This document shows, piece after piece, positions 6,163 to 20,279 of a DNA stretch of 33,787 bases (its first letter is position 1; the number at the start of each line of letters is the position of its first letter). The stretch spans positions 1 through 33,787 of the IMG/VR virus record IMGVR_UViG_2724679074_000004. The stretch is one strand, 5' to 3'. The notes under the pieces are model-generated. The model saw only the letters and a program-made list of their open reading frames with translations, did no database searches and had not been told where the DNA came from. Origin of the DNA: a virus. Lineage: Duplodnaviria; Heunggongvirae; Uroviricota; Caudoviricetes. The position numbers were made by a program, and so were the translations under genes.

Positions 6163-6855
6163 TTAAAACAACGAGCCAAGCAATCCGATACCAGCACCAA
6201 TGCCAGCGCCCCAAGGCGTTGATGTTCCCAAAAGGCTGGCAAGACCTGCACCGGCAATCGCACCAGACGTGCCGCCGCTAATTGCAGTCTGAAGACTTGA
6301 TGGTTTATTGGCATTAGCAGCGGCAAGTGCTGCGCTTTGCTGTGCAATGCTGCTCATGTTGTTGGCGTACGTCTGCCCGGCGTTTGCCTGACCTTGCAGC
6401 GCACCAAGCCCAACGTTTGCCAGATTGTTGTAGTTGCTCATCTGATTTGATAACCAAGACTGACCGAGTGTCGGCGCGATCGTAGCCAGTTGATTGCTTG
6501 TGGCTGTCGAACCAAGTCCACCCGTCGCCTCCGCAGCAGCAAGACTCTGGTAACGCGCCTGCCCTGCAAGGTCTTTATACTGCTGAGAGTTGTAATACTG
6601 ATTAAGTGCCTGCCCCTGACCTTCTAAACTGGAAAGGTTCTGAAGCTGGTTAACATACTGCTCCGCAAGCGGCGTGAACGGAGCAAGGTTTTTCATGATC
6701 GTCTGCCACTGCTGATTTTGCAGGTCTGCGGCATACTTCTGAGCTTCTGCTGCATACTTTGCGCTTTTATCAGAGCTACCACCTTTCCCGCCTTTTTCAG
6801 GGCACCAAGGTTCCTCGCCGCGCAGTTTTCTGCCCAGCTTAAATGCATATAACAT
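6163..6855 (-). CDS. Ejection protein, P22 gp7-like
   Basis: 230 aa (P22 gp7 229 aa); N-terminus MLYAFKLGRKLRGEE.. and conserved position. Confidence 0.75.
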   Translation of the reverse strand: MLYAFKLGRKLRGEEPWCPEKGGKGGSSDKSAKYAAEAQKYAADLQNQQWQTIMKNLAPFTPLAEQYVNQLQNLSSLEGQGQALNQYYNSQQYKDLAGQARYQSLAAAEATGGLGSTATSNQLATIAPTLGQSWLSNQMSNYNNLANVGLGALQGQANAGQTYANNMSSIAQQSAALAAANANKPSSLQTAISGGTSGAIAGAGLASLLGTSTPWGAGIGAGIGLLGSLF

Positions 6856-19246: not shown

Positions 19247-19378
19247 GCTCTACCCCTTCATTGAGGGGATTTGCTCTATTTAATTAGGAATAAGGTCGAT
19301 TACTGATAGAACAAATCCAGGCTACTGTGTTTAGTAATCAGATTTGTTCGTGACCGATATGCACGGGCAAAACGGCAT

Positions 19379-19398
19379 GAGGTTGTTAGCGCAACCTC
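19379..19398 (-). terminator. Candidate tR'-like hairpin in the late leader, upstream of the holin
   Basis: Minus strand GAGGTTG-CGCTAA-CAACCTC (7-bp stem) followed by ATGCCGTTTTGCC; placement analogous to lambda tR'. Confidence 0.3.
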
Positions 19399-19490
19399 CT
19401 GCCACCCGCTTTCACGAAGATCATGTGTAGAAGGCCGCAGCGTAACTATCACTGATGAATTCAGGATAGCCAGTGGCTACGGCTCAGTTT

Positions 19491-19518
19491 GGGTTGTGGC
19501 GGCCGGAATCGAACCGGC
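19491..19518 (-). other. tRNA-like T-arm plus acceptor 3' strand motif (not a complete canonical tRNA as far as I can fold by eye)
   Basis: Minus strand GCCGG-TTCGATT-CCGGC (perfect T-stem/loop consensus) followed by CGCCACA A CCC; a complementary TGTGGTG lies ~120 nt upstream (too far for a standard cloverleaf). Confidence 0.3.
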
Positions 19519-19757
19519 TTCCATCGGTGCGCTGCCGATTGCAGTACGCGCGGCGGTCAGCTACATGACTAGTATTTTCACTGTCGCCTATCTGCTAGCT
19601 CGCCATTGAGCTTCACCACAACGATAAGAGCACTGCGCGGCACCTTTCACCAATTCCGCGAGGTCTGCGGGTTCAATGCTCTTACCTGTTGTGCAAACAA
19701 AAAAAGCCACCATTGCAACTTAAGAGTCACTAACGGCAGCTTATCTTCTAATTATGG

Positions 19758-20279
19758 CTAAATGGATAATTGCATGTCAAGGCTTTTAACAGCAACATGC
19801 TTAACTTTCTCAACACGTTTACGCATTTTGAAAGCATTTTGCATTGGCTGGTACAAAACAAATAACGACGCTTTCAGGATGTCGTCAATTTCGTTTCTAC
19901 AGGTTGCCAGTGAAGGTTTTCTCCATCCCTCGCCACCACGTCCACACATCTTGCGTGGCTTTGCAGTCGCGTGATAGTAGGATGCAATTGCTCGCTTAGA
20001 TGAACCATGAGCGTAGTAGCTGAGGAGGATGCCAAAGGCTTTCTTGTCAATGTACATGACGGAATCGACGACCTGAGAAATCAACATTCCATCATCATCA
20101 TTGCACATTGGCCTTGTCATAACTCTTCCCGGCTCTACGCTCTCCATGAACTTCGCTATTACGCTGCTCATGCGCTTTTCCAGACGACCTGAATAAACCC
20201 ATGCGCCCCACAGTTCAAGCCAGCAATTCAGCCAATCGTGCTGTTCTTTGGTGAGGTTTAGTTCTCTTATGCTCATCAT
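19758..20279 (-). CDS. Late-gene antiterminator Q (phage 82 / Phage_antitermQ-type, gene 23 position)
   Basis: 173 aa ORF directly downstream of the nin genes and upstream of the late leader/lysis genes; resemblance to 82-type Q proteins is from memory. Confidence 0.55.
   Translation of the reverse strand: MMSIRELNLTKEQHDWLNCWLELWGAWVYSGRLEKRMSSVIAKFMESVEPGRVMTRPMCNDDDGMLISQVVDSVMYIDKKAFGILLSYYAHGSSKRAIASYYHATAKPRKMCGRGGEGWRKPSLATCRNEIDDILKASLFVLYQPMQNAFKMRKRVEKVKHVAVKSLDMQLSI

Follow-up and report, generated by a model that had tools for sequence, protein, structure and literature searches.

The species 1 and 2 RNAs of phage T4 are stable, tRNA-like small RNAs encoded in the phage tRNA cluster, and their function was long unknown. 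The C4 RNA of phages P1 and P7 is processed by RNase P. In the N leader of lambda, cleavage at an RNase III site detaches NutL from the N ribosome-binding site, and a stable 96-nt RNA has been reported from the leader of the N homologue of P22. Outside phages, the DIS of HIV-1 is a palindromic kissing-loop dimerization site; we know of no bacterial or phage tRNA-like RNA that dimerizes by a palindromic kissing loop. According to PMC5725501 (citing Wilson et al. 1997 and 2002), N and the Nus factors bound at NutL repress the translation of N, and RNase III modulates this repression. In the late region, the moron site 3' of PR' encodes AgvB, which works through CACAACA, the consensus target of the GcvB R1 seed (PMC4104026). 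LPR2 is an Hfq-bound sRNA of the lytic cycle of lambda that gives a northern band of ~63 nt, as reported in the available sections of a recent preprint (bioRxiv 10.1101/2024.10.31.621285); neither a cassette architecture nor a tRNA-like payload is described in those sections.

The window analyzed here is a stretch of 33,787 nucleotides from a Caudoviricetes phage, and all features described below lie on its minus strand. Between the Q gene (PF06530; 20279-19758) and the holin gene (19246-19043), we identified a tRNA-shaped RNA at 19622-19493. A pR'-type late promoter (19751-19780; TTGACA, an 18-nt spacer, and CATAAT) overlaps the end of Q. It has 11 of 12 matches in a promoter scan and is identical to the sequence annotated as pR' in HK75. 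The hairpin and U-run at 19699-19740 constitute a Q-dependent terminator tR' of the P22/HK75 type, immediately upstream of the cassette that holds the RNA. A simple terminator scan gave no call at this position; the feature was read directly from the letters and aligns with the one annotated as 'terminator Tr'' in HK75. Since the cassette stands directly after this Q-controlled tR', it is expected to be transcribed only when Q permits read-through into the late genes. The initial annotation had located its motif correctly between Q and the lysis genes, but had taken a hairpin further downstream for tR'. That structure (19369-19403, with a short U-run and likewise without a call in the terminator scan) is a lambda-type leader hairpin of the common downstream leader, outside the cassette. 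It is near-identical in lambda, BTP1, HK75, and CUS-3 irrespective of the payload, and its lambda counterpart sits downstream of lambda's true tR'. In current records, spurious protein genes are annotated across the tRNA-shaped RNA.

The RNA (19493-19622, 130 nt) is a cloverleaf with a 9-bp acceptor-like stem and an extra arm at the D/anticodon junction. The stem is formed by GTTGTGGTG (19622-19614) and CGCCACAAC (19501-19493). The initial annotation had recognized the T arm, GCCGG-UUCGAUU-CCGGC (19502-19518), followed on its 3' side by CGCCACA(AC) at 19501-19493, and had suggested that an upstream TGTGGTG could pair with the latter strand. Both observations are confirmed, with TGTGGTG at 19620-19614 and the pairing extended to 9 bp. 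The intervening ~105 nt consist of the D arm, the long extra arm, and an arm with a 5-bp stem and a 7-nt loop. The D arm (19597-19612) pairs AGCUC with GAGCU around the loop AAUGGC, in which the GG is invariant. The extra arm spans 55 nt (19541-19595) and is composed of a basal helix (GCAG/CUGC), a conserved internal loop (AUAG/GCGCGUA), a second helix, and a large apical loop with the self-complementary hexamer ACUAGU (19568-19573). The anticodon-like, or variable-arm-like, hairpin AUCGG-CAGCGCA-CCGAU (19523-19539) is joined to the T arm by four nucleotides, GGAA (19522-19519). In nearly all copies, its loop reads C-A-GCG-C-A, which places an A at position 33 instead of U33 and a C at position 37 instead of a purine.

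The initial annotation had seen no canonical tRNA here, and the searches it proposed did not assign the RNA to a known class. With default settings, ARAGORN reported 0 tRNA genes in the whole window and 0 in the region, intron options included. With its intron, low-threshold, tmRNA, and mitochondrial options, all calls for the native sequence fell below threshold and disagreed with one another. When the extra arm was deleted in silico, default ARAGORN called a cloverleaf, tRNA-Arg(GCG). At the gathering score, Rfam 15 produced 0 matches over the whole window, and between 19250 and 19900 nothing relevant appeared at E values up to 10. The sole match in E-value mode was tmRNA (RF00023), which at 20.2 bits is below the gathering score of 47 and covers only the T arm and the 3' strand; there was also no default ARAGORN tmRNA, and position 3 of the acceptor is not a G-U pair. 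The T-loop motif GGTTCRANYC C occurs once in the window versus 0.21 expected, and 20 of 100 shuffles hold at least one. The motif alone is within chance, and it is the whole structure that exceeds chance. The elbow is that of a canonical tRNA, with a T loop of the UUCRANY type and a D-loop GG that are invariant in 32 distinct copies. The remaining hallmarks differ. Canonical tRNAs stack a 7-bp acceptor on a 5-bp T stem, have U33 and purine 37, measure 73-95 nt, and end in an encoded or added CCA; here, the acceptor has 9 bp, neither loop base is present, the length is about 130 nt, and the window copy ends in ...CACAAC-CCAAA and encodes no CCA. A 9-bp acceptor recalls the acceptor geometries of tRNA-Sec and allo-tRNA, and to our knowledge the 9+5 bp acceptor/T stack lies beyond every known tRNA geometry.

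About 127 copies of the RNA (65 unique) were found in Enterobacterales phages and prophages in IMG/VR and are never annotated. It is carried by 175 of 5,426 E. coli genomes (~3% of complete genomes) and also occurs in Klebsiella and Enterobacter prophages. The identity is 79-95% in these prophages and in the unrelated phages Skate, Akira, ST1UNAM, and Pantoea PdC23. A species-level genome scan yielded nine matches, among them six 22-mers that matched coding sequence from unrelated phyla by chance, and one mis-binned coliphage contig. A full-text literature search for conserved sequence strings returned unrelated eukaryotic papers only. The tRNA-shaped RNA is not described in the Pas sRNA preprint or in a 2025 phage sRNA review, and a search of the literature on nutL, RNase III, RNase P, and tRNA-like together found no prior description.

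Compensatory changes support every helix of the payload in an alignment of 32 distinct sequences (A4). As the copies were gathered by exact-word searches, their diversity is limited, and the effective sequence number in the model is 1.16. In A4, 92.7% of cells pair, a share that falls to 32-45% once the partners are slid, and 19 pairs show changes in both strands. None of 500 shuffles attained these values, a statistic that is inflated by kinship among the sequences. Each of the nine acceptor pairs has support, with covariation at pairs 8 and 9 (UA/GC/AU and GC/AU). The D arm is paired in 100% of cells, and the equivalents of G18 and G19 are invariant across the 32 sequences. Both-sided changes were observed at three of four and six of nine pairs in the two extra-arm helices and at three of five pairs in the T arm, the UUCGA loop of which is invariant. 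The anticodon-like arm at first looked invariant because of the way in which the copies had been ascertained. In a second test that used the D arm as bait, it was within two mismatches in 128 of the 131 copies fished independently, and three variant arms preserve the stem via compensatory or wobble changes. The covariance model R1 scores the window copy at 149.8 bits, as expected by construction. Across differing genomic contexts, the two ends of the 9-bp stem mark the limits of homology. A structure that is conserved and moves between contexts in this way indicates both selection and mobility as a unit. The suggestion that the late leader contains a structured RNA that mimics tRNA is thus supported by covariation, wide conservation, and context.

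The RNA is the payload of a conserved two-part cassette, composed of a leader hairpin and the payload, directly after tR'. The leader hairpin (19617-19693), recognized by its arms and by covariation, is a homologue of the lambda LPR2 region. It is an 18-bp stem with a bulged A and consists, from 5' to 3', of CACAAC (19693-19688), the bulged A (19687), GGUAAGAGCAUU (19686-19675), a variable interior (19674-19635), AGUGCUCUUAUC (19634-19623), and GUUGUG (19622-19617), which is common to the acceptor stem. The arms are identical or near-identical to lambda 44787-44862 and agree with the cassette pattern at 17 of 17 positions in the 5' arm and 15 of 17 in the 3' arm. As in the lambda-type cassette, they come right after tR', and the payload is closed by GUUGUGNUG / CANCACAAC. 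Among 46 distinct arm pairs, pre-filtered for at least 14 of 18 pairs, 11 of the 18 leader-hairpin pairs change on both sides, compared to 4.7 in shuffles. Variants replace CACAAC with ACUAUC, CGUAAC, or, in N leaders, CAAAGC, and their partners compensate; it is therefore the pairing that is kept and not the sequence. When the 3' partner of GUUGUGNNN was sought automatically, false partners rich in wobble pairs turned up within the payload and confounded the outcome, and the three-way relationship of these strands is therefore based on A4 together with the individual cases lambda, L133, and L062. GUUGUG takes part in two helices of almost equal energy (-79.5 and -80.1 kcal/mol), of which the leader helix is the first to form in simulated nascent transcripts.

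The slot behind the leader hairpin can be filled in different ways while its flanks remain the same. Unrelated payloads occupy it in lambda, CUS-3, and HK629, and true tRNAs occupy it in BTP1. The LPR2 probe corresponds to lambda 44816-44850, which lies within the homologous hairpin (44787-44862). Without its CACAACA and GUUGUG strands, this hairpin measures exactly 63 nt, in agreement with the northern band of LPR2. With LPR2 placed in the leader hairpin, processing at the hairpin/payload junction is demonstrated in lambda. The lambda payload is not tRNA-like, so cutting at the junction does not require a tRNA shape.

Relatives carry the payload in an N leader, next to true tRNAs, or as a stand-alone unit. 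In one type of N-leader relative (L010), it lies between boxB and the N start codon, inside the stalk GCUUUGGGGUGUGGUG / CACCACACC-A-CCAAAGC. The same stalk encloses the structured N leader of lambda, the interior of which is a different sequence. In these relatives, the enclosing stalk is of the RNase III type, with about 16-20 bp and a bulged A, and the payload stem in the window has 9 bp. Some relatives have A-CCA after the stem. We considered this encoded CCA as a tRNA-type 3' end and downgraded it, as the A-CCA is also one strand of the longer double-stranded stalk in common with lambda. In Skate and Akira, true tRNAs follow the payload on its own strand at a distance of ~100 nt, and in L149 it directly precedes tRNA-Arg and tRNA-Met(CAT). 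In Skate-like phages, the payload beside the tRNAs is antisense to tail genes. In a further type (L017), it stands alone and has a terminator of its own. A true tRNA-Arg follows the same leader hairpin in L134, and in BTP1, Oslo, and SPN9CC the late-leader slot is filled by tRNA-Asn and tRNA-Thr. The initial annotation had pointed to tRNA genes of related phages at this place, and those of BTP1 and its kin lie in the exact slot.

The apical hexamer of the extra arm is self-complementary in all 65 unique copies and occurs in seven versions, including CGCG and CCGG versions and one, UCUGGA, that pairs through G-U only. Many copies have CUA in the apical loop. No second copy of the hexamer or alternative partner was found nearby. 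This pattern suggests that the hexamer is a candidate kissing-loop dimerization site.

The observed structure, its conservation, the modular cassette, and the homology to the lambda LPR2 region and the N-leader stalk together lead us to favor, with some confidence, an excised and stable tRNA-like RNA that is produced from a Q-controlled cassette and acts in trans. The involvement of RNase III and RNase P, the accumulation of the payload, its dimerization, and its role in trans are parts of this scheme that we infer. The leader hairpin would fold first and take in the strand GUUGUG. A host endonuclease, possibly RNase III-like, would then cut the base of the hairpin and release an RNA of ~64 nt, to be compared with the homologous 63-nt LPR2 of lambda that is seen on northern blots. 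The freed GUUGUGGUG could pair with CGCCACAAC and close the tRNA-like fold, after which tRNA-type trimming (putatively by RNase P at the 5' end and other nucleases at the 3' end) would give the stable tRNA-shaped RNA. Its palindromic loop may pair with that of a second copy, and the RNA would act in trans on a putative host factor that recognizes the tRNA shape. The same cuts would part the 5' leader from the lysis and structural mRNA.

A simpler possibility is that the element works purely in cis, as a processing site or insulator whose tRNA shape and hairpin only recruit host RNases and whose excised RNA has no function. In the late operon, it would set the 5' end of the lysis mRNA, and in the N leader, it would separate NutL from the N ribosome-binding site. 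This would agree with a slot that takes the unrelated payloads of lambda, CUS-3, and HK629 as well as the tRNAs of BTP1 between unchanged flanks, with the replacement of the interior of lambda's N-leader stalk by the payload in relatives, and with the RNase III-modulated repression of N translation by NutL-bound N and Nus factors (PMC5725501). However, a cleavage site needs no near-invariant anticodon-like arm, conserved internal loop, or palindromic hexamer in seven versions, and the stand-alone L017 type and the Skate-like copies beside tRNAs have no leader to process. We therefore regard a purely cis-acting element as possible, though unlikely. The occurrence of tRNA-Asn and tRNA-Thr in the same slot of BTP1, Oslo, and SPN9CC could also point to a decaying or interrupted tRNA gene, a pseudogene of the tRNA genes of the slot, as could the tRNA-Arg(GCG) that ARAGORN calls without the extra arm and the low-threshold matches on the native sequence. 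The initial annotation had raised this explanation, and the RNA is indeed structurally interrupted. It is not degenerate, because the inserted arm is conserved and covaries, every helix is kept by compensatory changes, and the whole RNA persists at 79-100% identity across unrelated phage families and in several contexts; the 9-bp acceptor and the missing U33 point the same way, and a pseudogene is very improbable. Only slightly less improbable is a functional decoding or chargeable tRNA of odd shape, such as a suppressor, or a tRNA akin to class II in which one arm is enlarged. The complete cloverleaf with its canonical elbow, the 9-bp acceptor reminiscent of tRNA-Sec and allo-tRNA, the apical CUA of many copies, and the A-CCA of some relatives would fit such a tRNA. 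Against it stand a loop without U33 or purine 37 and a 9+5 bp stack beyond known tRNAs; moreover, the apical CUA belongs to a hexamer that varies as a palindrome and not as an anticodon, the window copy has no CCA, and the A-CCA of relatives is paired within the stalk.

Many integrases target the 3' ends of tRNA genes, and a T arm followed by an acceptor strand is typical of attP cores. The initial annotation had proposed a relic attachment-site core, in which a phage carries the 3' portion of a host tRNA. Among 5,426 E. coli genomes, however, the 58-nt 3' half of the RNA has matches in no core tRNA gene and only in the 175 genomes with the complete element. The 5' strand is present as well, together with the D arm and all remaining arms, and the position between Q and the holin is not a prophage end; the chance of such a relic is negligible. 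The RNA is thus neither a decaying tRNA nor an att relic. Sites that act at the DNA level, either 'boundary sequences' or cassette-exchange sites like integron attC with RNA structure as a secondary trait, would account for the CACAAC direct repeats that flank GTTGTG and the payload, for tandem units, and for the presence of the module in either slot. The authors of CUS-3 annotated 'boundary sequences' at this place, and integron core sites loosely resemble CACAAC and GTTGTGG. Such sites would not explain why the transcribed strand has G-U pairs (the U-G of the acceptor, UGCAAC/GUUGUG, and the hexamer UCUGGA), the covariation of internal helices throughout, the T and D loops, or the excised RNA that lambda yields, and no associated recombinase was seen at the cassette. 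A DNA-level function is therefore quite doubtful; recombination at the conserved stems can explain the shuffling without displacing an RNA explanation. Equally doubtful is a sponge that would capture GcvB by its CACAACA motifs in the manner of the prophage anti-sRNA AgvB. GCACAACAGG stands at the beginning of the cassette, and this 5' copy is single-stranded once the acceptor stem forms. Unlike AgvB, the cassette has no promoter or terminator of its own, and its CACAAC lies within a covarying helix, where variants with compensating partners preserve pairing and not sequence. The RIL-seq chimeras of LPR2 in the available sections of the lambda preprint are with PreS and fliC only, and GcvB is unmentioned there (bioRxiv 10.1101/2024.10.31.621285).

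Taking the preferred trans-acting RNA further, one may speculate on a natural family of 'tRNA-scaffolded' RNAs in lambdoid and other enterobacterial phages, in which interchangeable cargo would be held between an acceptor-like stem and D- and T-like hairpins in heavily transcribed leaders and freed by a processing-coupled refolding switch. The window member would homodimerize by the palindromic loop of its extra arm and serve as a trans-acting decoy or inhibitor of a host factor that recognizes the tRNA shape, for example a tRNA-targeting defense nuclease or toxin, or a tRNA-processing or translation factor. As a whole, this extended proposal is tentative and rather unlikely.

If the preferred reading is correct, the late and N leaders of lambda-like phages, which rank among the most thoroughly studied regulatory regions in biology, hold an unannotated modular system of excised structured RNAs. 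One of its modules would be a covariation-supported tRNA mimic that is present in more than 100 deposited phage genomes and in about 3% of complete E. coli genomes. The cassette gives structural context to LPR2, the newly reported sRNA of lambda, and connects the classic RNase III stalk in the N leader with a larger family of cassettes. Beyond this, it bears on the benefit of tRNA-shaped RNAs to phages, a timely question given the wide interest in tRNA-targeting defenses and phage counter-measures, and on genome annotation, as spurious protein genes now overlie the RNA.

With canonical and class II tRNAs, the payload shares the order of the arms, a UUCGAUU T loop with a G-C closing pair, the D-loop GG, and, separated from the T arm by 4 nt, an arm with a 5-bp stem and a 7-nt loop. 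Its own traits are the 9-bp acceptor on a 5-bp T stem, the 55-nt extra arm, A33 and C37, and the length of ~130 nt. The tRNA-like domain of tmRNA is similar in that the acceptor strands are distant in sequence and the T arm is at the 3' end; in contrast, the payload has no tag reading frame or G3-U70, and it has a D arm and an anticodon-like arm. The T4 species 1 and 2 RNAs and the C4 RNA of P1 and P7 are stable phage RNAs, co-transcribed with tRNAs or leaders and freed by host tRNA-processing enzymes, as is proposed for the payload, whereas the payload family is set apart by its own architecture and its position in leader cassettes of temperate lambdoid phages. Similar to the HIV-1 DIS, the apical loop is A-rich and holds a six-base self-complement that varies yet stays self-complementary, although dimerization of the payload is a prediction from sequence. 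AgvB and AsxR share the moron site 3' of PR' and the CACAACA motif with the cassette, while AgvB is an RNA of 51-60 nt with a promoter and a terminator of its own and an unpaired CACAACA at the 5' end, convergent with another sRNA and not tRNA-shaped (PMC4104026). The lambda N-leader stalk and the window cassette are both of the three-part design X / X' / X, and the window copy differs in its location in the late leader, its stem of only 9 bp, and the separate hairpin beside it. The late-leader cassette of lambda agrees with that of the window in its position right after tR', the arms CACAACAGGUAAGAGCAUU ... AGUGCUCUUnnCGUUGUG, the payload closure, and a near-identical downstream leader. Lambda's own are the hairpin interior and the 85-nt payload (44857-44941), both unrelated in sequence, and this payload is without a T loop and is not tRNA-like.

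The T stem and loop described in the initial annotation, the acceptor strand after it, and the distant TGTGGTG are all present on the minus strand. The T arm (GCCGG-TTCGATT-CCGGC, 19518-19502(-)) is followed directly by the 3′ acceptor strand CGCCACAAC (19501-19493(-)), whose 5′ partner TGTGGTG lies at 19620-19614(-). The acceptor-like complementarity reaches nine pairs, with GTTGTGGTG (19622-19614(-)) as the 5′ strand. A tRNA/tmRNA search of the whole window by ARAGORN found none, and relaxed settings gave only sub-threshold, mutually inconsistent calls. Rfam 15 returned zero matches at the gathering score; at E up to 10 the sole match was tmRNA, at 20.2 bits (gathering score 47), covering the T arm and the 3′ strand. 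The T-loop motif by itself is within chance (0.21 expected, one found in the window). Its meaning had to be judged by comparison with other sequences.

On an alignment of 32 distinct copies, an explicit model was tested in which a 9-bp acceptor encloses a 5-bp D arm, an extra arm of two helices, a 5-bp stem capped by a 7-nt loop, and the T arm. Pairing cells reached 92.7%, against 32-45% when partners were slid by 1-3 columns, and 19 pairs changed on both sides, against 4-9 when slid. None of 500 shuffles attained the observed pairing and covariation values, a statistic that is inflated by kinship among the copies. Since the copies were collected by exact-word searches, their diversity is modest (effective sequence number, 1.16). 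Acceptor pair 8 occurs as UA, GC, and AU and pair 9 as GC and AU, the T stem changes on both sides at three of five positions, and each of the two extra-arm helices covaries. GG in the D loop and UUCGA in the T loop never vary. The first search used the anticodon-like arm as bait, which made the apparent invariance of that arm an artefact. With the D arm as bait instead, 128 of 131 real copies have an anticodon-like arm within two mismatches, and the three variants keep the stem via compensatory or wobble changes. After in silico removal of the extra arm, ARAGORN calls a cloverleaf tRNA-Arg(GCG), in two of four constructs at default and in all four at a slightly relaxed threshold. The ARAGORN and Rfam check proposed in the initial annotation is thus negative for the native sequence at default and gathering settings, and a cloverleaf emerges once the arm is taken out. 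On the basis of this call and the covariation-tested structure, the sequence is read as a cloverleaf whose acceptor is two pairs longer than usual and whose D/anticodon junction bears a 55-nt arm. Its anticodon-like loop of 7 nt, C-A-GCG-C-A, lacks U33, so decoding is unlikely.

The apical hexamer of the extra arm is self-complementary in all 65 unique copies and occurs in seven versions (ACUAGU, UCUAGA, GCUAGC, UCGCGA, ACCGGU, UCCGGA, and UCUGGA). The last self-pairs through G-U only, which argues for RNA over DNA. Neighbouring bases of a single hairpin cannot pair with each other, and the surrounding several hundred bases hold no second hexamer copy, so the simplest reading is that the hexamer would pair two RNA molecules. 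Predicted duplex energies range from -3.6 to -8.7 kcal/mol.

The placing of this RNA between Q and the lysis genes holds. NinH lies upstream of Q (PF06530, 20279-19758(-)), which is followed by a pR′-type promoter (19780-19751(-), 11/12 matches) and a tR′ hairpin with U-run of the P22/HK75 type (19740-19699(-)). Downstream of the tRNA-like region, a leader almost identical to that of lambda precedes an HP1-type holin (PF16080, 19246-19043(-)) and then lysozyme. The hairpin at 19403-19369, previously taken as tR′-like, belongs to this common leader, and its lambda counterpart follows the true tR′. At 19253-19268, just before the holin start, the hairpin CCCCTTCATTGAGGGG occupies the place of the equivalent hairpin upstream of lambda S, whereas the holin here is HP1-type and not lambda S.

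Directly after tR′, the window carries a cassette, which consists of a leader hairpin and a payload closed by the acceptor-like stem (here the tRNA-like RNA, 19622-19493(-)). In the minimum-free-energy fold, the entire cassette is enclosed by pairing of GUUUG upstream (19694-19698) with CAAAC downstream (19487-19491); lambda does not conserve this pairing. Among deposited phages, BLAST found the same sequence in HK75 and a few others. As the initial annotation had anticipated for related phages, tRNA genes also fill this slot: tRNA-Asn(GTT) and tRNA-Thr(TGT) lie between the same flanks in BTP1, Oslo, SPN9CC, and many P22-like phages. In CUS-3 and HK629, the flanks and the GTTGTGGTG...CGCCACAA pair are retained but enclose another interior, with D-like and T-like hairpins of its own, which covary. 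Lambda has the same arrangement directly after its tR′, with hairpin arms CACAACAGGTAAGAGCATT ... AGTGCTCTTTCCGTTGTG; the stem that closes its payload, GTTGTGCTG / CAGCACAAC, differs from the window stem by compensated changes. IMG/VR scans with the hairpin arm yielded >119 loci. Among these are 93 distinct hairpin interiors and some 45 classes of payload; GTTGTGGTG...CACCACAAC closes almost every payload, and many payloads contain D-like and T-like hairpins. The alignment-derived covariance model assigns 149.8 bits to the window copy, a score expected from the way it was built, finds no second copy in the window, and gives weaker full-length matches to other payload classes and to a payload that is a true tRNA-Arg(TCT) (locus L134).

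The commonest other payload class starts with GGUGAAUGCGCAGGCUGAUGCGC and ends with GCCGGAGAUCAGCRCCGGC-CACCAC (CUS-3, L004 780-990; HK629, L003 1480-1600; L137, L139, L186). The D-like and T-like hairpins of this class covary from phage to phage around a centre that is hypervariable in sequence and length, and it may represent a second tRNA-scaffold family. Tandem cassette units occur in L007, L139, and L175. In ST1UNAM (L007 2211-2640), the interior of the second of two leader hairpins is homologous to the lambda late-leader payload, which indicates that modules move between the hairpin and payload slots. At L134 7031-7187, the tRNA-Arg(TCT) stands immediately behind the leader hairpin and its acceptor strand overlaps GTTGTG; at L149 (about 795-1080), tRNA-Arg(TCT) and tRNA-Met/Ile(CAT) come after the tRNA-like RNA, an arrangement resembling Stx-phage tRNA clusters. 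In HK629 (L003 693-1400), Q and the cassette are separated by an inserted HNH endonuclease gene and a duplicate of the P22-type tR′ sequence, and homing endonuclease genes also lie near the tRNA-like RNA in Akira and PdC23.

The leader hairpin (18 bp with a bulged A) was compared across 46 distinct arm pairs, pre-filtered for at least 14/18 pairs; double-sided changes were counted at 11 pairs, whereas shuffles gave 4.7 ± 1.4 and sliding gave no more than 5. LPR2 is reported to be an Hfq-bound lambda RNA, about 63 nt long, that derives from the late operon, adjoins 6S RNA, and is detected by northern blots in the lytic cycle (10.1101/2024.10.31.621285). The published probe maps to lambda 44816-44850, within the homologous hairpin (44787-44862), which minus its outer CACAACA and GUUGUG strands measures exactly 63 nt. 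Lambda LPR2, as there described, is therefore the hairpin part of the cassette, cut out where the closing stem of the payload begins. GUUGUG (19622-19617) has two possible partners, CACAAC upstream or CACAAC downstream. These states are near-isoenergetic, at -79.5 kcal/mol (pair probability 0.28) and -80.1 kcal/mol (pair probability 0.72), and in simulated nascent transcripts the upstream (leader) helix is the first to form.

Unrelated phages share the payload core at 79-95% identity (Skate, Akira, INT55, the seszw series, ST1UNAM, and Pantoea PdC23). In both Skate and Akira, the core is antisense to tail genes, with a true tRNA ~100 nt downstream on the same strand. The RNA has about 127 copies in IMG/VR, of which 65 are unique. 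The RNA is present in 175 of 5,426 complete E. coli genomes and annotated in none, and a species-level scan added Klebsiella and Enterobacter; its other hits were chance words or one mis-binned contig. A contig labelled as a Cellvibrionaceae MAG (L239, JAUVQU010000080.1) has a Q / pR′ / cassette region of enterobacterial lambdoid type that is near-identical to the window; the contig is probably mis-binned or a contaminant. Protein genes annotated over the RNA or leader (ON470589.1 and ON470594.1, hits H1, H2, and H31; L005 2563-2724) look like annotation artefacts, namely a "polyubiquitin-A" CDS in vB_EcoP-611R6 and 683R2 and an opposite-strand "hypothetical protein" in the Skate and INT55 records.

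Of the copies, 26 lie between PL/NutL (boxA and lambda boxB GCCCTGAAGAAGGGC) and the N start codon, where the 9-bp stem extends into a longer stalk, GCUUUGGGGUGUGGUG / CACCACACC-A-CCAAAGC. In the lambda N leader, the same stalk, GCUUUGGGGUGUGUG / CACACACC-A-CCAAAGC, encloses another interior. The apparent "A-CCA" of these copies is thus also one strand of a double helix and was not counted as a tRNA-type 3′ end. PMC5725501, citing Wilson et al. 1997 and 2002, calls the lambda NutL-to-N leader "highly structured" and states that RNase III processing modulates N autoregulation. N leaders share the three-part design (CAAAGC / GCUUUG / CAAAGC), and in locus L062 all three parts changed together. 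A P22 small-RNA study described a stable RNA of 96 nt whose 3′ end is 16 nt short of the N homologue and which contains ACCAAAGC close to that end. Stand-alone units (L017 type) consist of a terminator, a hairpin of the same design with a different arm sequence, the RNA, and a terminator. In E. coli Ecol_545 (L235 6001-6138), the RNA lies in the immunity region, with the IS21-family ISEc12 between it and the N gene. In the window, a boxB-like GCCCTGAAAAAGGCG (6789-6803(-)) that departs from the lambda boxB consensus by 2 mismatches is a possible nut site.

We suggest that, upon Q-dependent read-through, the leader hairpin would form and be cut at its base, probably by RNase III. The freed GUUGUGGUG could then close the tRNA-like fold, which RNase P and 3′ nucleases would trim, and the stable product may dimerise and act on a host factor recognising the tRNA shape. 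The same cuts would also detach the lysis mRNA from its 5′ leader. The main rival is a purely cis role, which fits the interchangeable payloads but leaves unexplained the conserved loop, the internal loop, the palindromic hexamer, and the stand-alone and tRNA-cluster copies. Other explanations fare worse. Of the three readings in the initial annotation, a tRNA-mimic structured RNA is retained, whereas a degenerate tRNA or pseudogene origin is contradicted by covariation and an att relic by the lack of a host match, since the 58-nt 3′ half hit only the 175 of 5,426 E. coli genomes that contain the whole RNA. The 7-nt loop and the 9+5 geometry speak against a decoding tRNA. Sponging of GcvB via CACAACA is weakened by compensated sequence variants of that motif and by the lambda LPR2 partners reported in 10.1101/2024.10.31.621285.

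No description of the tRNA-like RNA or of the cassette architecture was found in Rfam, annotations, or the searched literature, whereas the hairpin half is already known, in lambda, as LPR2. The tRNA-like RNA is classed with phage-encoded tRNA-like stable RNAs and with leader-embedded processed RNAs.
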